Shown here: piece after piece, positions 18,591-58,481 of the stretch
Numbering within the stretch: position 1 is the first letter of the stretch
How the letters are laid out: each line of letters starts with the position of its first letter
Origin: Candidatus Omnitrophota bacterium
GTDB taxonomy: Bacteria; Omnitrophota; Gorgyraeia; Gorgyraeales; Gorgyraeaceae
DNA: 64,000 nt
Assembly: GCA_018814825.1 (NCBI GenBank)
Contig: JAHIYJ010000090.1
Span: 1,321 to 65,320 of the forward strand
Reading direction: 5' to 3'
The notes under the pieces: generated by a model
What the model was told of the DNA's origin: nothing
Databases searched by the model: none
Seen by the model: the letters and a program-made list of their open reading frames with translations, nothing else
Program-made: the position numbers and the translations under genes

Positions 18591-18629
18591 TTCGTATATA
18601 GCATATCGTATGTAGTATATTGTAAAATG
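18591..18629. repeat. Heptamer repeat, forward type
   Basis: The sequence reads ttcgtatatagcatatcgtatgtagtatattgtaaaatg. Confidence 0.6.
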
Positions 18630-19766
18630 ATAGACAAAAACTTAAAACCAGGATTTTTAAACAAATCTTTTTTACTACCAAACGATATACGATATACGAC
18701 ATACGATATACGAAACATGCGATATGCGAAACGAGGCTCTGTCCTGATCATGACTTTCATAATCATGGCAACTCTTATTTCTATAACTTTAGGCTTTTTA
18801 TTTATGATGTCTATACAGCTTAAAGGTTCGGGATATGATGTGGCGAGTTCAAAGGCCCTCTGGCTGGCTGAGGCGGGATTGCAGAAGGTTATTTATCAGA
18901 TCAAAAATAGCTCTAGTTTTAGAGATAATCCGACTACCATAACCGGAAATTTAGAAAATGGGGGTTATTCTGTGAGTGTGAGTAAAAATGGAATCACATA
19001 CTCGCTTAGCTCAACCGGGACAGAATCTGACATATCGAGAACAGTAGAGTTGGATGCAGTTGTCAGCTCAAATGGAGGTAGTTATCCCGATGGCGCCCCT
19101 GAGGCATTTAATTATGCCATGCATTCTTTTGGCAATCACATCAAGTTCAAAGATTCCGAGGGCACTATTAACGGAAATGTGGCCTCGGCCAACAGTGTGC
19201 AAAATTCAGGCGATCCAACGATAAACGGCATCGTAACCAGTAATTCCACCGTACCCACGCCTTTTACGGTTAATATGGCTGGTTATCAGTCTATAGCCGA
19301 TAACGTTGAGAGCAGTAATTATACTTTTACGGAAGGTAATACCTATGGCTCCTCTGGCAGCGAACAAATTTGGTATGTGCAGGGGAATGTTACGATAGAA
19401 GAAAATGTTGCTATCTATGGCACAGTTGTTGCTGAGCATAATGTCACTTTGGGCAGTGAAGATATAACAATCGATGCAGCATCTGGTTACCCCGCTCTCA
19501 TCGCAGGCAATAATATTAGCGGAGATGGATTAGAAAATAGTGCTATAAATGGGTTGATTGCCGCAGAAAACAATATTGATTTTGATAACATCAAAGATGC
19601 TACTATCAATGGGGCAATACTCGCCGGCAATAATATAACTATGAGAGATGGCGAAGATTTTACAGTTAATTACGACTCAGATATAACATCCAATCCGCCC
19701 CCATATTTTAGCGGCTATGGGGGCACTACTACTGTTACGACACAGGGTTGGAATGAGATTACATGA
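18627..19766 (+). CDS. Minor pseudopilin, GspK/PilX-like (PilX_N-like N-terminus, no Glu5), with a large N/G/T-rich C-terminal domain
   Basis: ..RYAKRGSVLIMTFIIMATLISITLGFLFMM..ALWLAEAGLQKV is PilX/GspK-type. An alternative internal start is ATG ~18717 (MRYAKRG..). Confidence 0.55.
   Translation: MIDKNLKPGFLNKSFLLPNDIRYTTYDIRNMRYAKRGSVLIMTFIIMATLISITLGFLFMMSIQLKGSGYDVASSKALWLAEAGLQKVIYQIKNSSSFRDNPTTITGNLENGGYSVSVSKNGITYSLSSTGTESDISRTVELDAVVSSNGGSYPDGAPEAFNYAMHSFGNHIKFKDSEGTINGNVASANSVQNSGDPTINGIVTSNSTVPTPFTVNMAGYQSIADNVESSNYTFTEGNTYGSSGSEQIWYVQGNVTIEENVAIYGTVVAEHNVTLGSEDITIDAASGYPALIAGNNISGDGLENSAINGLIAAENNIDFDNIKDATINGAILAGNNITMRDGEDFTVNYDSDITSNPPPYFSGYGGTTTVTTQGWNEIT
18683..18733. repeat. 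(CGATATA)n heptamer repeat, reverse orientation, 7 units
   Basis: The units read cgatata|cgatata|cgacata|cgatata|cgaaaca|tgcgata|tgcgaaa. Confidence 0.65.
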
Positions 19767-26051: not shown

Positions 26052-27110
26052 ATGAAGAAGGCAAAAAAAATTTTCAGAAAGGACAATTTTAAGCTTCGCC
26101 TTGCAGTTATATTACCCTTATTGTTTGTCATTTTGATCTCCGGTTATGGGATAGCTGTTTTCTATAATCTGTCGCATTTTTTTAATTCACCAAAGGCGAT
26201 TTTTAACCCACGCATATACCTCATTATCACTATAATTAGCTCTTTTTGTATCGGGTTAGCCCTGACTTATGCAATACTCATGCCCATAAGGAGGTTAAGG
26301 CAGATGCTGAAAGATATAGAAAGGAATAATTTTAGTTTAACTAAGCATCCGAACGTTGAACAGGAGATCGAAGAGGTTTTTCAATCATTTGAGCATTTAC
26401 ACTCATCTCTAGAAATCAGGAGAAGACGAGAAGTGCTTCAAAGGCTTGCCTCGCTTGGCCAGCTTGCCGCAGGGGTCGCTCATGAGATTAGGAACCCCCT
26501 TGGCTCTATAAAGGGCCTTATGAATTTAATAGCTGAGAGTTTGCCTGATGGCGATCCGAGAAATGAGTATGCCGAGGTAATATTAAGAGAGGTTGGGCGC
26601 ATGGAAGGCATTATCAATAGATTCTTAAGCGTATCCCCGTCTAAATACATGGAGATAAATCAAGAAGAGATAAATCTGGATTTAATCTTGGACGAGGCTA
26701 TATCTTTGGCAAAACTTAGCTGCTCTCAGACTAACGAGATAGAGATTATTAAAGAAGGTAATCTCGATGTAAATATAATAGGTGACAGGGAAAAATTAGG
26801 CCAGGCCTTATTTAATGTCATACTAAATGCCCATCAAGCTATGCCTAAAGAAGGCGGAACTCTGAGAGTTTCTATTAAAAGATTAGAAGATAATAGTATA
26901 CAAGTGAAATTTTCAGATACGGGGATGGGCATTGCCGAAGAAAATATAGAGAGGATATTCGACCCATTCTATACAAGCAAGGAAGAAGGAGTAGGTTTGG
27001 GCTTGACAATTACACATCAAATTATAACAGCGCATAAAGGTGATATCAGGGTGGAAAGCATCAAAGGTAAGGGATCAGATTTTATTATTTCCCTGCCGGT
27101 TGGAGGTTAA
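26052..27110 (+). CDS. pilS: Membrane sensor histidine kinase, NtrB/PilS-like
   Basis: Two TM segments. H-box LAAGVAHEIRNPLGSIKG, then HATPase_c (DTGMGI, GVGLGL). It sits immediately upstream of a sigma-54 activator. Confidence 0.65.
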   Translation: MKKAKKIFRKDNFKLRLAVILPLLFVILISGYGIAVFYNLSHFFNSPKAIFNPRIYLIITIISSFCIGLALTYAILMPIRRLRQMLKDIERNNFSLTKHPNVEQEIEEVFQSFEHLHSSLEIRRRREVLQRLASLGQLAAGVAHEIRNPLGSIKGLMNLIAESLPDGDPRNEYAEVILREVGRMEGIINRFLSVSPSKYMEINQEEINLDLILDEAISLAKLSCSQTNEIEIIKEGNLDVNIIGDREKLGQALFNVILNAHQAMPKEGGTLRVSIKRLEDNSIQVKFSDTGMGIAEENIERIFDPFYTSKEEGVGLGLTITHQIITAHKGDIRVESIKGKGSDFIISLPVGG

Positions 27111-27112
27111 AA

Positions 27113-28486
27113 ATGAGTAAGGACAGGGTTCTAATAGTGGATGATGACAGATCAATGCGTTTCATGCTTTCCGAGGCACTAAAAAAAGATGGCTACGAGA
27201 TAACGGTTACCCCTGATGCCTTAGAGGCTATTGAAAAAGTCAAAAGCCAAGTTTTTTCTGTAATTATAATGGATATAAAGATGCCAAAGATGAATGGACT
27301 GGATGCGCTTCTGAATATCAGCCATATCAGGCCTTTTATATCTTCAATCGTCCTTACTGCTTATGGCTCGGAGCAGGTAAATTTTAAAGGACTCAAAGAA
27401 TTACCTTTTGCTTATTTTACCAAGCCATTTGATTTAGAGAAACTGCGTTTAACTGTCAGACATGCAGTAGAAAAATATAGGCTGTATGAGGATAAGGCTT
27501 GCCAGAATAATCTTGCCTACAAGGATATTATTGGTGAGAGCGCTGCCATGAGAGAGGTGCGGGATTTTATTGTTAAGGTTTCAGAGACGCCGGTTACCGT
27601 ACTGATTCAAGGAGAGAGCGGCACAGGAAAAGAACTTGTAGCCAGGGCTATACACCTTTGCAGTCCAAGAAGGGATAAACCATTTATACCAATTACCTGT
27701 TCAGCTATCCCTGAAACGCTTTTAGAAAGCGAATTATTTGGTTATAAGAAAGGCGCCTTTACTGATGCCAAAGAATCTAAACCGGGCAAATTTGAATTGG
27801 CAGATGAAGGGACGGTTTTCCTCGATGAGTTTGCAGATATGAGCCCGGCTTTACAAGCAAAACTCCTGAGGGTTCTTGAGCAGAAAGAGCTCGAGGTATT
27901 AGGAGCGGTTAAGCCAGTCAAAGTCGATGTGCGTATAGTTGCCGCTACAAATAAAGATTTGCACACTGAAGTGAGAGAGCAGAGATTCCGAGAGGATCTC
28001 TATTATAGAATAAATATTGCGTCTTTGAATTTACCCCCCTTGCGTCAACGAAAAGGGGATATTCCTCTTCTTTTGGAACATCTTATAGGCAAATTTAATA
28101 AAAAGTTTAATAGGAATATTGAAAGTGTTTCGGTTGAAACATTGGAGTTTCTGATTAATTACAGTTGGCCGGGCAATGTTCGAGAATTAGAAAATATCTT
28201 ACAGCGCTCAATGCTTTTAGAGACAGGGTCTATCCTGACGTATGAAGCCTTAACTTCTTCTCTGAAAAATTTAGAAGACATAACACAGAAGACAAGCCAA
28301 ATGGATTCAACTAGGTTCCTTTCTTTAAAACAGGCCGTGAAGCAGTCTGCCTATAAAATTGAAAAGGAAATGATCCAGAAATGCCTTATAAAGCATAATA
28401 TGAACCGTAACCTTGTCAGCAGAGAGCTGAAGATAAGTCGAAAGACACTCTATAGTAAGATGAAAGAACACGGACTTTATAGTTAA
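27113..28486 (+). CDS. pilR: Sigma-54-dependent response regulator (NtrC/PilR family: REC + AAA+ + Fis-type HTH)
   Basis: REC domain (LIVDDDRSMR..IIMDIKMPKMNG). Walker A GESGTGKE. GAFTDA is the sigma-54 contact motif. The C-terminal HTH is present. Confidence 0.85.
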   Translation: MSKDRVLIVDDDRSMRFMLSEALKKDGYEITVTPDALEAIEKVKSQVFSVIIMDIKMPKMNGLDALLNISHIRPFISSIVLTAYGSEQVNFKGLKELPFAYFTKPFDLEKLRLTVRHAVEKYRLYEDKACQNNLAYKDIIGESAAMREVRDFIVKVSETPVTVLIQGESGTGKELVARAIHLCSPRRDKPFIPITCSAIPETLLESELFGYKKGAFTDAKESKPGKFELADEGTVFLDEFADMSPALQAKLLRVLEQKELEVLGAVKPVKVDVRIVAATNKDLHTEVREQRFREDLYYRINIASLNLPPLRQRKGDIPLLLEHLIGKFNKKFNRNIESVSVETLEFLINYSWPGNVRELENILQRSMLLETGSILTYEALTSSLKNLEDITQKTSQMDSTRFLSLKQAVKQSAYKIEKEMIQKCLIKHNMNRNLVSRELKISRKTLYSKMKEHGLYS

Positions 28487-28678: not shown

Positions 28679-28694
28679 TTGGCACGATTTTTGC
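28679..28694 (+). promoter_or_regulatory. Sigma-54 (-24/-12) promoter TGGCACG-attt-TTGCT
   Basis: TTGGCACGATTTTTGCTT matches YTGGCACGrNNNTTGCW, with 10 nt between GG and GC. It lies 32 nt upstream of the pilA ATG. pilR and rpoN are both in this window. Confidence 0.8.
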
Positions 28695-28725: not shown

Positions 28726-29061
28726 ATGAACAAGAAAGGTTTTACGTTAATTGAATTGATTATGGTCATCGTTATACTTGGTATCTTGGCAGCTGTAGCT
28801 ATCCCTAAATTTGTAGGGCTGCAGGATGAAGCCAAGCAGGCAAGCTGCGATGGAAATTTGGCCGCAGTCAGGTCAGCTCTATCTGCTTATTATGCTGTAA
28901 CAGCAGTTAGGATCGGCACAGCAACATTTCCAAGCGCGCTTACTAACACAACATTTACAGACAACTATTTTACAGAGCAGACATTGCCTGTTTGTCCGTT
29001 TGGCTCAACATGGAGCTACAACTCTGCGACCGGCGCAGTAAGCGGTCATGGCCACACATAG
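28726..29061 (+). CDS. pilA: Short type IVa major pilin (PilA-like)
   Basis: MNKKG|FTLIELIMVIVILGILAAVAIPKF, 111 aa. The C-terminal third is Ser/Thr-rich. The RBS AGGAGGTG precedes it. The listed 28717 start is a GTG inside the RBS. Confidence 0.8.
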   Translation: MNKKGFTLIELIMVIVILGILAAVAIPKFVGLQDEAKQASCDGNLAAVRSALSAYYAVTAVRIGTATFPSALTNTTFTDNYFTEQTLPVCPFGSTWSYNSATGAVSGHGHT

Positions 29062-29155
29062 TATGAATAGGACTTAACAAGCAGTATGATTTTACGATGG
29101 GGGAGAAAGAAAGGGGATAAACAAAGCCTTCGTTCTCCCCCTGTTTTTATGGCCT

Positions 29156-30307
29156 ATGGATAATAAGATAAATATTTTTTCTATCTTCGCAATTATATTA
29201 TTGGGCGTCATAATCTATTCTAATGCCCTGAAAGGTCCTTTTGTCTATGATGATTTTCACAGCATAACAGATAATCCCTATATAAAACAACCGAGTCTTC
29301 TTTCTTCCCTGTTCGATCTCTCTTATGTAACTCATCCATCTCAGGCAAGATCAATATACCGTCCAGTGTTGATGTTTACATTTTTTTTAAACTATGCATT
29401 TGGCAGTTTTAACCCCATAGGCTATCATTTAGTAAATATTTTTCTGCATATCATGAATGGATTCCTGGTCTTTTTCCTGATAAAGGAACTTTTAGGGCCG
29501 GCGTATATTTTTAGAGAGAGGATTGCCTTATTTTCTGCCCTGATTTTTATCAGTCACCCCGTACAAACTGAAACCGTAAATTATATTATCTGCCGCTCAG
29601 AGTTATTGGCCGGATTTTTTCTTCTTTTATCTTTCTCTCTTTATATAAAGGCAGTGCGCTCTACGAAAGAAAGGTATAGTTTTTATAGAGCTTCTCTTAT
29701 TGCCTTTGGCCTCGGGCTTTTGTCCAAAGAGACGGCTCTTATGCTGCCCCTAATAATCTTTTTCTACGAATGCCTGTTTATTGGTTGGAAAAATTTTAAG
29801 GAATTCCTATGGCGGTTAAAAAGATACTATTCTTTTTTTGCTGTTATGGCCGTCATATATATCCTTTTACGGACGTTTCTATTAGGGAATTTTTTGGGGA
29901 AGTTGAGCATAAGTTCTCCGGTGAGGCCCCTTTTTATAAATCTCCTGACCCAAGCCAAGGTATGTGTTTTTTATTATCTTCGGCTGCTCTTTTTCCCATT
30001 CGGACTTTCTATCGATCACTATGTCCCTGTAGCTAAGCCTATTTTTGAATTCCCTGTTTTAATGTCTATTATTTTAATCATTATTCTTTTAGCCTCTGCT
30101 TTTATACTGCGGCGCAAGAATAAAGCTGTATCATTTTTTATTCTTTGGTTTTTCATTAACCTTATCCCAACAGGCATTATTCCTCTGCACATTATTATGA
30201 ATGAACACAGACTTTACCTTTCTACCGTTAGTTTCGGTTTTCTTGTTTCCTTGGCCTTGATAAGCGCCCCCGTCCTAAAAAAAAACCGCAATTTCTTAGT
30301 CAGTTGA
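29156..30307 (+). CDS. TMTC-like (PMT_2/DUF1736) GT-C glycosyltransferase, membrane domain; apparently split from its TPR domain
   Basis: GPFVYDDFHSITDNP and YRPVLMFTFFLNYAFGSFNPIGYHLVNIFLHIMNGFLVFF match the GFVWDD / YRPL..LSF..GYHL.N..LH signature of TMTC-like O-mannosyltransferase-like proteins. About 10 TM segments. Confidence 0.6.
   Translation: MDNKINIFSIFAIILLGVIIYSNALKGPFVYDDFHSITDNPYIKQPSLLSSLFDLSYVTHPSQARSIYRPVLMFTFFLNYAFGSFNPIGYHLVNIFLHIMNGFLVFFLIKELLGPAYIFRERIALFSALIFISHPVQTETVNYIICRSELLAGFFLLLSFSLYIKAVRSTKERYSFYRASLIAFGLGLLSKETALMLPLIIFFYECLFIGWKNFKEFLWRLKRYYSFFAVMAVIYILLRTFLLGNFLGKLSISSPVRPLFINLLTQAKVCVFYYLRLLFFPFGLSIDHYVPVAKPIFEFPVLMSIILIIILLASAFILRRKNKAVSFFILWFFINLIPTGIIPLHIIMNEHRLYLSTVSFGFLVSLALISAPVLKKNRNFLVS
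30277..30285. repeat. A9 homopolymer 20 nt before the stop of the TMTC-like membrane-domain ORF
   Basis: An A10 tract would read ..LKKKPQFLSQLIPSLCVIFF.. and fuse 29156..30307 in-frame to 30304..31095. Confidence 0.7.
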
Positions 30308-31095
30308 TTCCCAGTCTATGCGTAATCTTTTTTTCTGTATTAACGCTAAACAGAAACCCCTATTGGCAGGATGGGATTGAGCTCTGGAAGGCATCTGTTA
30401 AGGTAACGCCCTATTCTAATCGCAGTCATCATAATCTGGGTATAGAATATCTTAAAAAAGAGAGATATGGCGAGGCAGAAGAAGAATTTAAAGAGGCTAT
30501 AAGGCTAAAGCCGGATTATTATTATGCCTATGCCTGCCTGGGTTATCTGTATCATAAGAAAGGTGATTACGGGAAGGCGATAGAGTGTTATCGCTATAGC
30601 CAGAAACTTCAGCCAAATTTGTTTATTACCTTTTATCTCTCAGGAAATATTTATGACGATGAAGGGAAGATTGATGAGGCTATAATCGAGTATCAGAAAG
30701 CCCTTTGGCTTAATCCGGATTTCGGGATGGGGCATTTTCGGCTGGGAGTGCTTCTTGACAAAAAGAGATTTTATTCTGATGCAGAAGCTGAGTATAAAAG
30801 GGCGATATACCTTGACCATAAGATCCCTGAGGCACATTATAATTTAGGCATTATTTACGGTAAACAGGGTAATGCCCTTGCAGTTGAGGAATTCAGAAAG
30901 GCGATAAAGATAAACCCAGGATACCCTGAGGCACATTATAATTTGGCCATAACTTACGCCGCCCTGATGCCCCCAGATCTTAGACTGGCCCGAGAACATT
31001 TCGACAAGGCAAGAGAATTAGGTTATAATGTCGATGAGGGATTGGTGGATACCTTGTTAAATTTTAATGACAAAGATGAAGACAAAAGGCCTTAA
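30304..31095 (+). CDS. TPR-repeat domain, probable C-terminal part of the TMTC-like glycosyltransferase; as annotated it has a TTG start overlapping the upstream stop by 4 nt
   Basis: A last TM helix (IPSLCVIFFSVLTL) is followed by RNPYWQDGIELWKASVKVTPYS..NLG and at least 5 TPR units. Confidence 0.55.
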   Translation: MIPSLCVIFFSVLTLNRNPYWQDGIELWKASVKVTPYSNRSHHNLGIEYLKKERYGEAEEEFKEAIRLKPDYYYAYACLGYLYHKKGDYGKAIECYRYSQKLQPNLFITFYLSGNIYDDEGKIDEAIIEYQKALWLNPDFGMGHFRLGVLLDKKRFYSDAEAEYKRAIYLDHKIPEAHYNLGIIYGKQGNALAVEEFRKAIKINPGYPEAHYNLAITYAALMPPDLRLAREHFDKARELGYNVDEGLVDTLLNFNDKDEDKRP

Positions 31096-31795
31096 TGCCG
31101 GTTTTCTAATTCTTGCATCTCTTCTTGTATTATTTTCATATCTCTCTATAAAGAGGAATATTATCTGGAGTGACCCGCTCAAGATATGGGAAGAAGCAGT
31201 GAGGCTCTCGCCATACTCTAGCATGGCTCATTATAACTTGGGTATAGTTTTAGATAAGGATGGACAGCTGGATCTGGCCATGGAGGAATTTCAGGAGGCA
31301 ATAAGGCTTAACCCTTCACATGCCCTTGCCCATACCTCCTTAGGGGTTGCCTATAACCAGAAAGGCCTTTTGGATTTAGCAATAGAAGAACATAAAAAAG
31401 CCATACTTTTAGATCCGGATCTGTCAGAGGCCTATAATAATTTAGGCCTTGCTTTCTCAGCGAGTTCTCAGTTTAATGAGGCCATTGAAAACTACAAGAT
31501 AGCATTGGGGTTAAATCCGTGGCTGCTGGAGGCCTATAACAATATAGGCATTGCTTACAGAAAGAACATGATGTTTAAAGAGGCTTTAGAAACCTACGAA
31601 AAGGCAATAACGATTGATCCAGGCTTTAGTGCGGCTTATAATGGTATTGGCGTCGTGTATACCAATCTGGGCAATTTTAAAGAGGCAGAATACTGGTTTA
31701 GAAAGACGATCGAGATATCGCCTGAAAGCAAGGCTGCTCAGCTCGCAGCTGATAATTTAGCCCGTCTTGATATATTGTTAAAAACCGGATATTGA
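31067..31795 (+). CDS. Membrane-anchored TPR-repeat protein, paralog of the preceding TPR segment
   Basis: A TM helix (FLILASLLVLFSYL) is followed by IWSDPLKIWEEAVRLSPYSSMAHYNLG and 5 to 6 TPRs. Confidence 0.55.
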   Translation: MTKMKTKGLNAGFLILASLLVLFSYLSIKRNIIWSDPLKIWEEAVRLSPYSSMAHYNLGIVLDKDGQLDLAMEEFQEAIRLNPSHALAHTSLGVAYNQKGLLDLAIEEHKKAILLDPDLSEAYNNLGLAFSASSQFNEAIENYKIALGLNPWLLEAYNNIGIAYRKNMMFKEALETYEKAITIDPGFSAAYNGIGVVYTNLGNFKEAEYWFRKTIEISPESKAAQLAADNLARLDILLKTGY

Positions 31796-32655
31796 AAGGA
31801 GGTATTGTGGCCAGGATAAGCATTGTCATCCCTGCATATAATGAGGAGGCTTCCATCAAACAGGTGTTGATGGGGCTGAAGAAACTGGATAATGATTATG
31901 AGGTTATTGTGGTTGATGATGGCTCAAAAGATAATACTTATTCTCTGGTAAAGGAGTCGGGGGTGAAGGTGATCCGCCATCCTTACAATAAGGGTTATGG
32001 AGCAGCAATTAAAACTGGAACGAAAGTGGCTGGTTCTGAGATAGTGTTTTTGATGGATGCCGACACACAGCATAATCCCGCGGACATCCCGCGGCTTTGT
32101 GAATACATGGAAGAATTTGACATGGTCGTGGGCCAGAGGAGTAAGGGCTCAAAGGCCCCATTGGCACGCAGGCTTGGTAAGTGGGCCTTAAAAAGGGCCG
32201 CTGTTTTTTTGGCAAGGATGGATATCCCTGATTTAAACTCAGGATTCAGGGTAGTTAAAAAAGAGGTTATCCTGAAATTTATGCATATTCTGCCAGATAC
32301 ATTTTCTCTTTCGACCACTTTAACTTTGGCAGTCATAAAAGGAGGGTATACAATTAAGTATGTCCCGATAACCACAAAAAAGAGGGTTGGTAAGAGTTCA
32401 CTAAACCTCTTTAGGGATGGCTATAGGACTATACTTTTAATATTATCAACCATTGCCCTTTTTGACCCATTAAGGGTATTTACTCCTTTGGCGATCAGCC
32501 TCTTTATTCCCGGATCCATCTACACCGGCTATCAATTGGTCTTTTTCCACAATGTCCCTGATTCAGGGATCTTACTGGTTATCTCCGGCATGTTAATCTT
32601 TTTTTTCGGAATATTGGCAGAGCAGATTAGTCAGATGAGACGTCAGATGAGATGA
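31792..32655 (+). CDS. GT2-family polyprenyl-phosphate sugar synthase-like glycosyltransferase (DPM1/ArnC/GtrB-like) with C-terminal TM helices
   Basis: ISIVIPAYNEEASI..YEVIVVDDGSKDNT and a DAD motif (LMDADTQH). Two C-terminal TM segments. Confidence 0.7.
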   Translation: MKGGIVARISIVIPAYNEEASIKQVLMGLKKLDNDYEVIVVDDGSKDNTYSLVKESGVKVIRHPYNKGYGAAIKTGTKVAGSEIVFLMDADTQHNPADIPRLCEYMEEFDMVVGQRSKGSKAPLARRLGKWALKRAAVFLARMDIPDLNSGFRVVKKEVILKFMHILPDTFSLSTTLTLAVIKGGYTIKYVPITTKKRVGKSSLNLFRDGYRTILLILSTIALFDPLRVFTPLAISLFIPGSIYTGYQLVFFHNVPDSGILLVISGMLIFFFGILAEQISQMRRQMR

Positions 32656-34064
32656 AGGCACTGTTAATTTACCCGCCCAAGCAGCACATGATCAAGACAA
32701 ACGTCCCTGAATTTGTTGATAAGGAGACAGGTTCATACCCGCCGTTAGGGCTTTTGTACATAGCCGGTTTTATTCAAAGGAACAGCAGTCACGAGGTCGA
32801 GGTTTTGGATACACAGGCTGAGGGATTGGATTATGTGCAGATCGAAGAAAAGATAAGAGAAAAAAGACCTGATATTGTGGGAATACAGGTCTTTACCTTT
32901 ACCCTCATAGATGCTATCCTGACTGCTGAAACAGTCAAGAAGGTGAGCAATAATATCCTGGTATGTTTTGGAGGGCCACATGTGAATATATATCCTGAAG
33001 AGACGATAAATATCCCTGAAGCCGACTTTCTTATTATGGGAGAGGGTGAGATCAGGTTTACGAGACTACTGGATGCCTTAGATAAAAGAGAAGGATTGAT
33101 GGATATAGATGGGATCATTTTTAAGGATAATTCCAGGATTATCAGGACGCCTCTAAGAGGATATATTGAAGATCTGGATTCCATTCCTTTTCCAGCCCGC
33201 AGACTCAGCCCGTATAAAAAATATTACTCCTTGCTGGCTAAACAGACGCCTGTTACCACGATGATAACATCCCGAGGCTGTCCATTCAGGTGTCTTTTTT
33301 GCGGCCGCCCGCACCTCGGAAAAAAGTTCCGTGCCAGGTCTGCCGCTAATGTGGTGGATGAGATAGAGGATTCTCTAAAGATAGGGATACGGGAATTCTT
33401 TTTTTATGACGACACATTTTCAGTAAATAGGGATAGGGCCTACGATATCTGTGACGAGATTTTAAAGAGGGGCCTGGAGGTCAGCTGGGATGTACGCACA
33501 CGCATTGATACAGTGGACGAGGGGCTGTTGAAGAGATTGAAAAAAGCAGGCTGTGAAAGGATACATTATGGAGTTGAGGCAGGAACAAAGGAGATATTAA
33601 ATGTTTTATGTAAAGATATCGATCTTAAAAAGGCAAAGGAGATTTTTAAAAAAACAAAGGATTTAGGGATAACTACTCTGGCCTATTTTATGATCGGTTC
33701 GCCTACGGAAACAAAAGACCAGATATTAAGGACAATAGATTTTGCAATCGAACTGGATCCTGATTTCGTTCATTTTTCTATTACCACGCCATTCCCTGCA
33801 ACCGAACTATATCGCCTCGGCCTGGAAAGAGGGGTTTTAAAAAAAGACTACTGGAGAGAATTTGCTTCAGAACCTAAAAAAAATTTTATCCCTGAGATGT
33901 GGGAAGAAAACCTCTCACGGGATGAGCTATCCGCATTATTAAAGTTTGCCTATAAGCGATTCTATGCCAGGCCCTGTTATATCATGAAAGAATTGGCCAA
34001 GGTCAGAGATGTCAGGGAATTATTGAGAAAGATAAAGGCTGGATTAAATGTAATCAAGAGTTAG
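32652..34064 (+). CDS. B12-binding-domain radical SAM enzyme (class B rSAM), copy 1
   Basis: N-terminal B12-binding Rossmann segment (PPLGLLYIAGFI..DIVGIQV). rSAM cluster MITSRGCPFRCLFCG. 470 aa. Confidence 0.7.
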   Translation: MKALLIYPPKQHMIKTNVPEFVDKETGSYPPLGLLYIAGFIQRNSSHEVEVLDTQAEGLDYVQIEEKIREKRPDIVGIQVFTFTLIDAILTAETVKKVSNNILVCFGGPHVNIYPEETINIPEADFLIMGEGEIRFTRLLDALDKREGLMDIDGIIFKDNSRIIRTPLRGYIEDLDSIPFPARRLSPYKKYYSLLAKQTPVTTMITSRGCPFRCLFCGRPHLGKKFRARSAANVVDEIEDSLKIGIREFFFYDDTFSVNRDRAYDICDEILKRGLEVSWDVRTRIDTVDEGLLKRLKKAGCERIHYGVEAGTKEILNVLCKDIDLKKAKEIFKKTKDLGITTLAYFMIGSPTETKDQILRTIDFAIELDPDFVHFSITTPFPATELYRLGLERGVLKKDYWREFASEPKKNFIPEMWEENLSRDELSALLKFAYKRFYARPCYIMKELAKVRDVRELLRKIKAGLNVIKS

Positions 34065-34066
34065 AA

Positions 34067-35494
34067 ATGAATATCGTCTTAATCAATGTCCCTTATTTAG
34101 AGGTATACGGTAAGTTAAACGTAGGAAAGAATTCAAGCTTTCCTTTGGGTTTGGGCTATATCGCCGCGGTTTTAAGACAGGCAGGGTATAATGTTAATTT
34201 GCTTGATCCAGAGCCGCAGGGAATGGACTTAATTAATATAAGGGCATATCTTCTGCAAAAGAGGCCTGATATGGTGGGCCTTTCCTGCGCTACAGCAAAC
34301 TTTAAGAATGCTTTAGCTATTGGGGCCATTGTCAAAGAAGCAATAGGCGTTACAGTAGTTCTTGGGGGGGTGCATGCCTCGGCATTACCCAGAGAAATTT
34401 TAAGTAACTTTTCCCAATTTGATTTTTTAGTAATCGGCGAGGGCGAAGAGACAATAGTCGGGCTTGCTGCTTTTTTGGAGAGCGGCTATGGAAGCCTGGA
34501 TGATATAAGGGGCATTGCCTATAGAAAAGACAAGATGATTAAACTAACAGCGCCGAGGCCTTTTATGTCCATAGAAAAGTTGGCAGAGCTCCCTTTTCCA
34601 GCAAGGGATTTGGTTGATATCAGCCTGTACCGTCCCCAGGCGCATTTGGATCGCGGTAAACCTGCGGCAAGCATGATTACCTCCAGGGGTTGTCCTGCCA
34701 GATGCACTTTTTGCGCATCTTACCTGACGACTGGATATGCCTTTCGCTGGCGCAGTCCTGAAAGTGTGGTCAGGGAAATCGAGGATTTGGTTTATAATTA
34801 TAGGATAGAACACATTATATTTGTAGATGATACATTTACTTTTCTTGAGGATAGGGCAAAAAAGATTTGCCAGCTTATTTTAGAAAAAGGCCTTGAGATT
34901 GACTGGTATTGCTTTGCCCGCGCAGACAAGGTTTCAGAGGAACTGCTGTTAGCAATGAAACAGGCAGGCTGCTTCAGTCTTTTATTTGGCGTAGAATCCG
35001 GGGATGAAGACATATTGAGGAATATTAAGAAAGGGATAACTCCCCAACAGTCTAAACAGGCATTGGATACGGCAAATAGAATGGGATTTAAGACCTTGGC
35101 AGGGTTTATGTTCGGTAATCCTGGCGAGACGCCTGAGACTGCGAAAAAAACACTGGATTTTGCTGTAGAACTTAATCCAACCATCGCTTCTTTTAATATC
35201 CTGGTGCCGTATCCAGGGACAGAGGTATTTAAAACGCATTACAGGGAGAGGTTTAAAGATCCTGCAACCTGGGATAGTTTTTTGCCCAGGGCAGTAGAAC
35301 CAGTTGCTGAAACAGAGGCCCTTACGAATAAAGATTTGACGCGCTGGGCTTCCTGGGCCTTTATAAGATTTTATGCGTTACGTCCTTGGCATGTTCTGGG
35401 TATGCTGAGGAAGATAAAGACATGGGGAGAGATCAAGTCTTATCTAAGAGGTGCATGGGGTTTGACGCAGAGGATCTGGGAGTGGAGAAAATGA
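34067..35494 (+). CDS. B12-binding-domain radical SAM enzyme (class B rSAM), copy 2
   Basis: FPLGLGYIAAVL..DMVGLS and MITSRGCPARCTFCAS. 475 aa. Paralogous to the preceding gene. Confidence 0.7.
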   Translation: MNIVLINVPYLEVYGKLNVGKNSSFPLGLGYIAAVLRQAGYNVNLLDPEPQGMDLINIRAYLLQKRPDMVGLSCATANFKNALAIGAIVKEAIGVTVVLGGVHASALPREILSNFSQFDFLVIGEGEETIVGLAAFLESGYGSLDDIRGIAYRKDKMIKLTAPRPFMSIEKLAELPFPARDLVDISLYRPQAHLDRGKPAASMITSRGCPARCTFCASYLTTGYAFRWRSPESVVREIEDLVYNYRIEHIIFVDDTFTFLEDRAKKICQLILEKGLEIDWYCFARADKVSEELLLAMKQAGCFSLLFGVESGDEDILRNIKKGITPQQSKQALDTANRMGFKTLAGFMFGNPGETPETAKKTLDFAVELNPTIASFNILVPYPGTEVFKTHYRERFKDPATWDSFLPRAVEPVAETEALTNKDLTRWASWAFIRFYALRPWHVLGMLRKIKTWGEIKSYLRGAWGLTQRIWEWRK

Positions 35495-36165
35495 TGACGG
35501 TAAAACAATTCCAGACGCACCAGAAACGTTATTGGGAAAGAAATGGCTTGGCAAAGAGAAGGCACCCTGCGCATCCTGTGATAGAAGCATATGTCCTCCC
35601 AAAGATTAACATTCTGCGCAGTTACGTTGACCTAAAACCCGAGACTCGACTTTTGGATGTTGGCTGCGGCAATGGCTTTTTTACTTTCTACTTTGACAAG
35701 ATCTGCAATGCTTATGGCATAGACTATTCTGAGATAATGTTACAGATGAACCCTGTTAAAAAGACCTCCATTATGAATGCCAGTGACTTGAGATTTGAAG
35801 ACAATTCATTCGACGCAGTCTTCTGCCATGCCTTGTTACACCATGTCGATGATATTGATAGAGTAATACAGGAGATGAGACGTGTTTCCAGAAGATATGT
35901 AATAATCCTTGAGCCAAACAGAAATAACCCTTTGATGTTTTTGTTTTCACTGCTAGTCAAGGAAGAAAGGCAGGCTATAAGGTTTTCACTGCCATATCTG
36001 ATAAGGGCACTCAATAGGAATGCCTTATCTGTCATAGCCTCTTTTTCATACGGCATGATTGCGCCTAATAAAACACCGGCATTTTTTATTCCATTGGCAG
36101 GCTTGTTCAATTTCAAGCATCCACTGGGAATCACAAATTTCATAATAGCGGAAAAGTTGCAATAG
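35491..36165 (+). CDS. Class I SAM-dependent methyltransferase
   Basis: LLDVGCGNGFFTFYF is the SAM-binding motif I. ATG 35491 overlaps the upstream stop (ATGA). The listed 35386 start is an in-frame upstream extension inside the preceding gene. Confidence 0.65.
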   Translation: MMTVKQFQTHQKRYWERNGLAKRRHPAHPVIEAYVLPKINILRSYVDLKPETRLLDVGCGNGFFTFYFDKICNAYGIDYSEIMLQMNPVKKTSIMNASDLRFEDNSFDAVFCHALLHHVDDIDRVIQEMRRVSRRYVIILEPNRNNPLMFLFSLLVKEERQAIRFSLPYLIRALNRNALSVIASFSYGMIAPNKTPAFFIPLAGLFNFKHPLGITNFIIAEKLQ

Positions 36166-57575: not shown

Positions 57576-58481
57576 ATGGCGGTTATGGCAAGGAAAAAGC
57601 CAAGAAGGTACTCTATCTTTCTGCTCTTTAGGGGGCTTAGTTTTATCGTATATATCCTACCCATGCGGTTAGGGATTTTTATAGGTAAGGCACTTGGGGC
57701 TCTGGCCTTTTGTATTCTCAAAAAAGAGAGAAACCTGGCTTTCTTGAATCTTGAAAGTGCGTTTGGGAATACCAAGAGCAAAAAGGAGAAAAGGCTTATT
57801 GCCAGAAAGGTCTTTGAAAACCTGGGAAAGAATTTTGTCGAGGTCATATCTCTTTCAAAATTCAATAAGGATAATATAGACGCCTATGTTAAGTGCCGGG
57901 GCCGGGAAGTGATAGACAGTCTTGTCCGACAGGGCAAGGGTGGCATAGTGCTTACGGCTCATTTCGGCAACTGGGAACTCCTGGCGCATTATTTTGCCAT
58001 AAAAGGCTACAGGGTAAATGTAATAGCCAGGCATGTCCGCATGGAGTATTTTGAGAAAATCCTGGATGGTATAAGGAAAAAGCACGGCGTTAATGTCCTT
58101 TACAGGGACTCTTCCGCCAAGGATGTCATCAGGCTGCTTAAGAATAATGAGTTCGTGGGCATAATACCGGACCAGGACATGGATAGTGTTTCAGGTGTGT
58201 TCGTGGATTTTTTCGGCAAACAAACGTATACTCCCAGCGGACCGGCTATTCTGAATCTCTTGACGGGCGTTTCCATTATTCCGTGTTTTATCGTTCGGAA
58301 TACAACCGGACATGAGATAATAATGGAACGACCTCTTGAGCTAAACTCTACAGGGGATAAAGAGAGAGATATACTGGAAAGTACTCAGCTCTACACAAAG
58401 GTCATAGAGAGTTATATAAAAAAATCTCCCGAACAATGGGTATGGTTTCACGAAAGATGGAAAACTTCCCGGGAATCATGA
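57576..58481 (+). CDS. lpxL: Kdo-lipid A secondary (lauroyl/myristoyl) acyltransferase, LpxL/LpxM family
   Basis: The HX4E active-site motif is TAHFGNWEL. N-terminal membrane anchor. 301 aa. Confidence 0.7.
   Translation: MAVMARKKPRRYSIFLLFRGLSFIVYILPMRLGIFIGKALGALAFCILKKERNLAFLNLESAFGNTKSKKEKRLIARKVFENLGKNFVEVISLSKFNKDNIDAYVKCRGREVIDSLVRQGKGGIVLTAHFGNWELLAHYFAIKGYRVNVIARHVRMEYFEKILDGIRKKHGVNVLYRDSSAKDVIRLLKNNEFVGIIPDQDMDSVSGVFVDFFGKQTYTPSGPAILNLLTGVSIIPCFIVRNTTGHEIIMERPLELNSTGDKERDILESTQLYTKVIESYIKKSPEQWVWFHERWKTSRES

Follow-up and report, generated by a model that had tools for sequence, protein, structure and literature searches.

Introduction

Few chromosomal bacterial genes are known to need homopolymer slippage to give a full-length product, among them dnaX, tssM, Shigella type III secretion genes and genes of endosymbionts. 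Bacterial RNA polymerase slips efficiently on runs of nine A or T, and the dnaX gene of Thermus thermophilus, which holds a run of nine A/T, gives rise to heterogeneous transcripts made by this polymerase; in the Escherichia coli dnaX, a -1 frameshift takes place on A_AAA_AAG (Atkins et al. 2016, PMC5009743). In Citrobacter rodentium, the A11 tract of tssM1 leads to approximately 20-25% of full-length membrane protein, and both forms are required (Gueguen et al. 2014, PMC4256274). Frameshifts in poly(A) tracts are, as summarized in PMC3017870 (Tamas 2008; Wernegreen 2010), conserved in Buchnera and Blochmannia and rescued through infidelity of the polymerase, with about 30% full-length transcripts. 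The present analysis concerns a comparable arrangement in a stretch of 64,000 nucleotides (nt) of a Candidatus Omnitrophota bacterium (contig JAHIYJ010000090.1 of assembly GCA_018814825.1; hereafter, the window), in which a run of nine A (A9) separates the membrane domain of a putative TMTC-like glycosyltransferase from its TPR domain, next to a type IV pilin gene.

The locus resembles each of these systems to a different extent. As in tssM1 and in the tssM gene of Yersinia pseudotuberculosis, an inner-membrane gene is cut after a poly-A tract, with the stop 19-28 nt downstream; the periplasmic C-terminal domain lies in another frame, the addition of A's restores the full length, two product lengths are expected, and a second species has retained the arrangement. 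In tssM1, however, the tract is an A11 whose slippage has been shown experimentally, whereas here it is an A9 at which slippage is predicted; moreover, the former belongs to the TssM family of type VI secretion systems and the latter to a GT-C/TPR gene of uncultured PVC-like bacteria. The likeness to dnaX lies in the length of the Thermus run, which is exactly nine A/T, in the Lys-codon heptamer of E. coli and in the two protein lengths obtained from one gene. In dnaX, the long form is the unshifted one and slippage produces the short form, whereas here slippage would produce the long one; in addition, the E. coli site is strongly stimulated by an internal Shine-Dalgarno sequence and by a hairpin, neither of which is conserved here. 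With Buchnera and Blochmannia, the locus shares an A/T-homopolymer frameshift that is common to different species and is followed by an undecayed downstream frame; unlike those AT-rich, drift-dominated genomes with many lesions, the window, from an uncultured bacterium known solely through metagenome assemblies, has a GC content of 42% and a single such site in 64 kb.

On the basis of this comparison and of the data reported below, the A9 tract is best described as a candidate homopolymer slippage (recoding) site, none of which has been described in this gene family or lineage. The locus would encode a TMTC-like enzyme associated with the pilin, in which a GT-C membrane domain is combined with a periplasmic TPR domain; in a small clade, the coding sequence of this enzyme is interrupted by a one-base frame offset within the Lys-coding A9. 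Standard decoding would lead to a membrane protein of 383 amino acids (aa) lacking the TPR domain, and a fraction of the expression events would shift frame at the A9, leading to the full-length enzyme of 646 aa. RNA polymerase slippage, adding one A to the mRNA, appears to be the most likely mechanism; -1 ribosomal slippage on A_AAA_AAA may contribute as well. In our judgement, the chances that this is a maintained RNA-level slippage site, giving a short and a long isoform, are about even.

The A9 Tract and the Two Reading Frames

The features on which the argument is built are the following (coordinates are those of the window; ORF, open reading frame; TM, transmembrane).

29156..30307, + strand: ORF1, GT-C-like membrane domain and unshifted product, with about 10 TM helices (sub-threshold Pfam PMT_2 match, AlphaFold2, Foldseek)
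30232..30307, + strand: stretch open in both the ORF1 and the ORF2 frames (three-frame translation, stop-to-stop frames)
30277..30285, + strand: A9 tract, proposed slippage site (sequence, frames, retention in an ortholog)
30283..31095, + strand: ORF2 frame, with the last TM helix (residues ~380-398 of the fused protein) and about seven TPR repeats (Pfam TPR, colinearity, pN/pS)

The A9 tract is the sole homopolymer of nine or more nucleotides in the window. ORF1 (383 aa) decodes it as CTA AAA AAA AAC and meets a stop 19 nt further on, its 3' end being CTA AAA AAA AAC CGC AAT TTC TTA GTC AGT TGA. ORF2 (30304-31095, 263 aa) is read in the -1 frame relative to ORF1, and the earliest canonical start codon available to it is a TTG, which shares 4 nt with the TGA of ORF1 (TTGA). 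On retranslation, the addition of one A (A10) generates a single ORF of 646 aa extending to 31095 (junction ..SAPVLKKKPQFLSQLIPSLCVIFFSVLTLNRNPYWQDG.. / ..VLKKKPQFLSQLIPSLCVIFFSVLTLNRNPYWQD..), while the removal of one A (A8) results in ..VLKKTAIS and an immediate stop. These are the outcomes that had been obtained in an earlier sequence-only reading of the region, whose position of the tract, ORF coordinates, translations and TTGA overlap proved to be correct on recheck, as did the exact fusion of the two ORFs by A10 and the premature end given by A8. Positions 30277-30283 also form an A_AAA_AAA heptamer in the right phase for a -1 ribosomal shift, the product of which would be identical to the protein obtained with one additional A. 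This is a slippery heptamer of the X_XXY_YYZ type (CT A_AAA_AAA AC), and its phase is the same in the window and in the second A9-bearing lineage described below.

Any change of frame is confined to the two-frame stretch, i.e., to 76 nt corresponding to 0.12% of the window. The number of A/T runs of at least nine nucleotides expected per 64 kb is 1.6 if the bases are taken as independent and 3.3 with a first-order Markov model, and one was observed. The occurrence of one such run per 64 kb is, therefore, unremarkable; its placement in the two-frame stretch is beyond chance, because the only run present falls within the 76-nt overlap of an ancestrally fused gene that needs exactly one additional nucleotide. 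Hence, the junction holds an A/T run of the length at which slippage is to be expected (about nine or more; PMC5009743), and one added nucleotide restores the frame. In the fused protein, the tract codes for Lys and is located in a cytoplasmic loop ahead of the last TM helix.

No other homopolymer-linked frame break was found in the window. The only other homopolymer of seven or more nucleotides lying inside a same-strand two-frame overlap is an A7 at position 58418 (overlap 58361-58481); considered as a possible second frameshift, it was ruled out, as it is part of an ordinary ATGA stop/start overlap of adjacent genes.

Conservation of the Tract and History of the Split

The search of a protein database of 5.8 billion clusters disclosed only three other close lineages of the gene, all of which end directly after a shared LKK. 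One of them is represented by L002 (from a JGI metagenome) and L116 (from the NCBI metagenome-assembled genome (MAG) GCA_964579905.1, labelled 'uncultured Planctomycetia'), which differ by one single-nucleotide polymorphism (SNP) in 2480 nt. In this lineage, the sequence CTAAAAAAAAAC is identical to that of the window (CTA AAA AAA AAC), the A9 is in the same phase, and the TM helix and the TPR repeats are in the same -1 frame; the synteny also extends to the kinases, the sigma-54 regulator, the pilin, the GT-C, the TPR and the TM + TPR genes. The two-frame stretch of L116 is only about 30 nt long, and it also holds the A9.

The divergence between the two lineages is large, since the proteins share 61% identity and the DNA approximately 65%. 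Synonymous divergence between the window and L002 is saturated (pS = 0.775), and the nonsynonymous values (pN) are 0.24 for ORF1 and 0.27 for ORF2. For the latter, pN/pS is approximately 0.35, and the frame has been kept open for 263 codons in the window and 269 in L116. Both the ORF1 and the ORF2 frames have, accordingly, been under purifying selection throughout this divergence. A conserved run and offset, with the downstream frame under purifying selection, was, thus, found in one additional lineage only.

Since identical 12-mers are not rare at a DNA identity of about 65%, the argument was built on the probability of the codon choice and on the frame offset. In the two A9 lineages, AAA accounts for 55% and 47% of the Lys codons, and CTA for 6% and 11% of the Leu codons; from these frequencies, the chance of an uninterrupted A9 in both lineages is about 4e-4, or about 5e-3 if any A-ending codon is allowed to precede the run. 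The possibility that the identical 12-mer reflects mere sequence conservation was weighed, and both the codon-choice odds and the common frame offset speak against it.

The other clade members have a different organization. L003 has an A7 and its TM helix is in the +1 frame, which would need a +1 shift or the loss of one nucleotide; the contig has a 2x coverage and the case is ambiguous. In L004/L005 (positions 840-1000), the gene ends with TTA AAA AAA TAA, and a more distant GT-C paralog begins 55 nt further on, with the GT-C genes in tandem. None of the four clade members is fused, and together they constitute a single clade nested within a set of fused homologs; the distant relatives are nearly always single-frame fusions. 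ORF2 is itself colinear with the TPR domain of one of these fused homologs (P0005, 39% identity) through the distinctive C-terminal tail. Because all four unfused members belong to one nested clade, the split can be regarded as an old event rather than as a recent lesion. In the simplest history, a fused gene would have been disrupted once, long ago, at a Lys-coding A-run; at least two lineages would then have kept the TPR part under selection, and one would have lost it.

Additional clade members were looked for in different ways. A scan of genome contigs for close orthologs retrieved only relatives with no more than 40% identity; among the matches listed for a scan of metagenome contigs, the relatives did not exceed 45% identity, and nearly all were below 40%. 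The distant relatives obtained from both scans served as the background set. A search for homologs of the ORF2/TPR part identified one relative with 48% identity (P0121), on a contig of 927 nt that begins inside the TM helix, the junction being absent; a profile search with the clade alignment revealed no further clade members. In L055, a Bacteroidales MAG, two tandem fused paralogs (at ~4410 and ~6520) contain an in-frame A8 (..LLWKKNK..), located after the penultimate TM helix, and the Lys-rich loop appears to be a recurrent source of long A-runs in the family.

The tract is present in three assemblies of the lineage of the window (the window itself, Logan SRR2544004 and NCBI GCA_018824945.1), which are 100% identical over 11-13 kb; the A9 is 100% conserved between the copy of the window (L001) and that of GCA_018824945.1 (L122). 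As these assemblies may share reads, they mainly exclude an assembler error. Within uninterrupted long ORFs, the window contains about 50 further runs of 7-8 nt. Moreover, when 152 gene copies of the family from 120 fetched loci were screened, colinear frame switches were flagged only in L002 and L116 (the copy of the window was not flagged, the query having been derived from its sequence), and no frameshift was found among the approximately 148 family copies outside the clade. An assembly error or a systematic homopolymer error is unlikely, because the other runs are intact and no frame switch was flagged outside the clade, and the A9 can be considered a genuine and fixed genomic state. As for the annotation, the gene list of L122 (JAHJFG010000056.1, 1547-2526) includes ORF2 as a protein of 263 aa but has no entry for ORF1, in the place of which it reports two short antisense ORFs, of 45 and 52 aa; ORF1 has been lost from the annotation because of the frameshift.

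Nature of the Enzyme

The TPR nature of ORF2 is clear from the matches with Pfam TPR families (E down to 2e-34). ORF1 has more distant similarities: its match with Pfam PMT_2 (E = 0.0012, 19.5 bits) falls under the 26.1-bit cut-off, precomputed PF13231 matches exist for several of its homologs, none of the NCBIfam models matches it, and the membrane-domain profile found no meaningful match among the PDB sequences. Searches of the PDB with the full-length profile or model were dominated by TPR proteins, and ORF1 was, therefore, modelled alone. The AlphaFold2 model, built with 55 homologs, has a pLDDT of 91.4 and a pTM of 0.92. When it was compared with the PDB by Foldseek, the top 18 matches were all GT-C enzymes or GT-C-like subunits (STT3, ArnT, AglB, Pmt4, PIG-U), with a probability of 0.97-1.00 and a best E-value of only about 1e-2; the best fold by E-value was STT3, and the best by TM-score was ArnT (0.51-0.52).

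The motifs on which the sequence-only reading had based a TMTC-like (PMT_2/DUF1736) assignment are indeed present in ORF1 (GPFVYDDF and YRP..GYHLVNIFLH), and they fall on near-invariant columns of the family (F29, D32, D33, R69, Y90, H91, N94 and H98). At least 90% of 55-57 homologs have D32 and D33, which belong to the first extracytoplasmic loop, and this DD motif may have a catalytic role. The usual fusion of the TPR domain at the C-terminus, also put forward at that stage, was found in more than 100 homologs with a fused TM + TPR architecture. The frame-corrected protein of 646 aa was predicted by AlphaFold2 as one chain (pLDDT 92, pTM 0.92), in which, according to the model and to hydropathy, a TM helix (379-405) runs straight into the TPR array, whose helices continue to residue 635.

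It is known that ArnT is the best structural template for TMTC1-4 and that the DUF1736 segment, corresponding to the loop that links TM7 to TM8, is recognized with E < 1e-30 in all human TMTCs (PMC7801869). The protein under study shares with TMTC1-4 and ArnT an N-terminus inside, an odd number (about 11) of TM helices, a C-terminal TPR domain outside the cytoplasm and a DD in the first external loop; this topology (about 11 TM helices and a non-cytoplasmic C-terminal TPR domain) belongs to the frame-corrected protein only. It differs from TMTCs in that no DUF1736 match was found in the protein by Pfam at E <= 0.01 and PMT_2 remains below threshold. The GT-C and TPR anatomy of the initial assignment holds. 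In view of the missing DUF1736 match, we do not place the protein in the TMTC family. The model points to a GT-C glycosyltransferase with a TMTC-like architecture.

Genomic Context

The genes and signals surrounding ORF1 and ORF2 are the following.

28680..28694, + strand: sigma-54 -24/-12 box TGGCACGATTTTTGC (perfect consensus match, 32 nt before the pilin ATG)
28726..29061, + strand: type IV major pilin gene, 111 aa (Pfam N_methyl, E = 9.8e-9; NCBIfam GspG/PilA-type N-terminus)
29099..29148, + strand: terminator-like hairpin GGGGGAGAA...UUCUCCCCC followed by UGUUUUUAU (U-tract), between the pilin gene and ORF1
31067..31795, + strand: ORF3, a stand-alone protein with a TM helix and TPR repeats and its own ATG (44% identity to the fused homolog P0004 over the TM11 + TPR part of the latter)
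31792..32655, + strand: GT2 gene resembling polyprenyl-phosphate sugar synthases (NCBIfam similarities below curated cut-offs)

The relative order of the genes is kinase/sigma-54 activator, sigma-54 box, pilin, hairpin, ORF1, ORF2, ORF3 and GT2, followed by two B12-radical SAM enzymes, a methyltransferase, minor pilins, PilM, PilO and a secretin. Just upstream of the pilin box (26052-28486), a PilS/PilR-like histidine kinase is encoded together with a sigma-54 activator, and the ATG of the pilin, at 28726, is preceded by a strong Shine-Dalgarno sequence (AAAGGAGGTGA). The C-terminal half of the pilin is rich in Ser/Thr. The claim that a sigma-54-driven pilin gene lies upstream of ORF1 is, thus, borne out by a perfect box. 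Two perfect sigma-54 boxes exist in the window; the other (19418-19432) is within or near the end of an ORF (18591-19766), and the next long ORF follows at a distance of about 400 nt. The region between the pilin and ORF1 (29062-29160) folds with -29.1 kcal/mol (z = -2.35); its hairpin, which a simple terminator scan missed owing to the long loop, is probably a leaky terminator that would lower the expression of the glycosylation genes relative to the pilin.

ORF3 looks like a TPR module detached from a second fused gene. Its ortholog in L116 (10022-12058) also starts with an ATG and is much longer (at least 679 codons); in both lineages, the N-terminus is Lys-rich and the ATG is conserved. 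A GT2 gene immediately precedes each of the fused homologs P0004 and P0005. That of the window lies two genes downstream of ORF2; its best NCBIfam similarities, all sub-cut-off, are with AglJ, a dolichyl-phosphate hexose transferase, PpgS, PgfS and ArnC-type proteins, and it likely supplies the lipid-linked sugar donor. Together with two B12-binding radical SAM enzymes and a SAM methyltransferase, it forms a pilin-linked island (31792-36165), which suggests an unusual, possibly methylated, sugar or a further modification. A similar gene set, including a B12-radical SAM enzyme and a methyltransferase, is found near P0004 (locus L117). From this gene order, it is reasonable to propose the adjacent pilin as the glycosylation substrate.

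Proposed Slippage at the RNA Level and Alternative Explanations

RNA polymerase slippage fits the locus because this mechanism needs only the run. No conserved downstream stimulatory RNA structure was found when the window and L116 were compared (z = -1.4 and -2.1, with differing spacings), and no Shine-Dalgarno-like sequence was found upstream of the tract in either of them. The missing stimulator and internal Shine-Dalgarno sequence count against an efficient -1 shift of the ribosome and not against polymerase slippage; a -1 ribosomal frameshifting on A_AAA_AAA is possible. Slippage in this organism, its efficiency, the use of both isoforms and the pilin as substrate are what we infer from the arrangement of the locus. 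Several other observations weigh against a maintained slippage site. The A9 with a -1 offset is found in two lineages only, since L003 differs in both respects (A7 and +1 offset, on its 2x-coverage contig) and L004/L005 have an A7 directly followed by TAA, without any TPR domain. The KK(N/K) sequence encoded by the run is a general feature of the family, as in the Bacteroidales paralogs with the in-frame A8. Besides, the assemblies of the same lineage possibly derive from the same or overlapping reads and represent weak evidence against a length variation within the population. Lastly, stand-alone TM + TPR proteins do exist (ORF3 and the case of L021 described below), so that an arrangement with two polypeptides is plausible.

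According to this latter explanation, ORF2 would be made separately from its TTG by termination-reinitiation coupling and would bind the GT-C core non-covalently, as ORF3 presumably does; the A-run would merely encode lysines flanking TM helices. The TTGA overlap of the window would suit such a coupling, and L116 has a TTG 22 nt ahead of the stop of ORF1, from which a well-formed signal anchor (MPKKK + TM) would result. In L116, moreover, the run is dual-coding (LKKN and PKKK), which could alone conserve it. A TPR-less GT-C subfamily exists, and TM + TPR genes with their own ATG are represented by ORF3, by its L116 ortholog and by a gene of L021 lying beside a TPR-less GT-C. However, the two TTGs are not homologous, as that of the window aligns to a CTG in L116 and that of L116 to a CGT in the window, and neither is preceded by a Shine-Dalgarno sequence; the ATG of ORF3, by contrast, is conserved. 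The TTG of the window lies downstream of the run, which is not dual-coding there, and the conservation of the run is left unexplained. A protein started at this TTG would have its N-terminus within TM11, where only about 15 hydrophobic residues and no positive flank would be left; 4-5 residues and the KKK flank of TM11 would be lost. Furthermore, ORF2 is a colinear descendant of a fused TPR domain. The comparison of orthologs that had been suggested to separate a bipartite system from a switch gave, therefore, a mixed answer: the orthologs of the clade are split too, yet they share no conserved independent start codon for the TPR part. An independent initiation of ORF2 appears to be a poor fit, and we regard the bipartite pair as rather unlikely.

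A junction of this kind was nevertheless observed elsewhere. The Deltaproteobacteria MAG L021 (5087-5300) has a GT-C gene without a TPR part and, after it, a distinct ORF with its own ATG (MSALRLTISTTLLLLLSIATFERNYVWND..), the junction being free of homopolymers; this amounts to a natural bipartite version of the architecture.

The sequence-only reading had proposed either an assembly error or a phase-variation switch. The latter would act at the DNA level, with slipped-strand mispairing toggling the tract between A9 (short product, TPR off) and A10 (fused product, on) in a heritable and reversible way, which would give sub-populations differing in pilin glycosylation. A coding homopolymer in a surface-glycosylation gene beside a pilin is a classic setting for such a switch. 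The poly-G tract of Neisseria pgtA is an example of a phase-variable pilin glycosyltransferase, and the likeness consists in a homopolymer located in a glycosylation gene associated with a type IV pilin; pgtA, however, encodes a cytoplasmic glycosyltransferase with a poly-G varying between strains, whereas the present tract is a poly-A in a GT-C membrane protein, and no variation was seen. The run has been maintained by selection across a saturated divergence, and the tracts of the clade members differ in length and offset (A9, A9, A7, A7), which means that the length has changed over evolutionary time. Nonetheless, all five assemblies of the two A9 lineages have A9, including L002 and L116 despite the SNP that distinguishes them; in each clade member with a TPR ORF, this ORF is out of frame; and no other long repeat tracts exist in the 64 kb. 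An exact look-up of the A10 fused proteins, with either start codon, in a collection of 15 billion sequences gave no match. The failure to find a tract-length polymorphism or an in-frame allele is a weak test, since reads may be shared and a consensus hides minority alleles. For a poly(A) tract to switch at a high rate where mismatch repair is normal, nine nucleotides are also a short length. The switch is, thus, a possible explanation and not the best fit, and it is considered quite unlikely. A fixed A9 read through at the RNA level, absent from the options of the earlier reading, fits better, because the same out-of-frame length occurs in two lineages whose synonymous sites have diverged to saturation, and no variants were found. 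Slippage and phase variation are not mutually exclusive, and one tract can do both at different rates.

The two remaining explanations are very improbable. That the true genome has an A10 and an ordinary fused gene might be suspected, as homopolymers are the commonest site of indel errors and one additional A restores a perfect fusion, but the A9 recurs in three assemblies of the lineage and in two of the divergent ortholog, obtained with different pipelines, the ~50 other runs are in frame, the ~148 other family copies have no frameshift, and all four clade members are unfused. A recent pseudogenization at a mutational hot spot, with the TPR part unexpressed, would be in line with the complete lack of the TPR part in L004/L005 and with the absence of a listed gene over ORF1 in L122, but an identical lesion is found in two deeply diverged lineages and the open ORF2 has kept its low pN/pS across them.

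Implications

The locus consists of one catalytic core and two TPR modules, i.e., ORF2 (P0005-like), which needs the frame shift, and ORF3 (P0004-like), which is free-standing. As pairs of a stand-alone core and a TM + TPR protein are found elsewhere too (L021), the short product of ORF1 may function as a subunit and not be mere waste. It might even be imagined that the A9 sets the ratio between two forms of the enzyme, a TPR-less core acting in trans with ORF3 and a core fused to ORF2, although we hold this to be distinctly unlikely; if true, one catalytic domain would be common to alternative substrate-recognition modules via polymerase slippage.

Should the RNA-level slippage reading prove true, it would show that annotation pipelines can mishandle such genes, as exemplified by L122. 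The comparison of the short and long forms would also offer a way to probe the contribution of the TPR domain in a bacterial TMTC-like glycosyltransferase. Homopolymer slippage would then be extended to a surface-glycosylation enzyme family and to uncultured environmental PVC-like bacteria.

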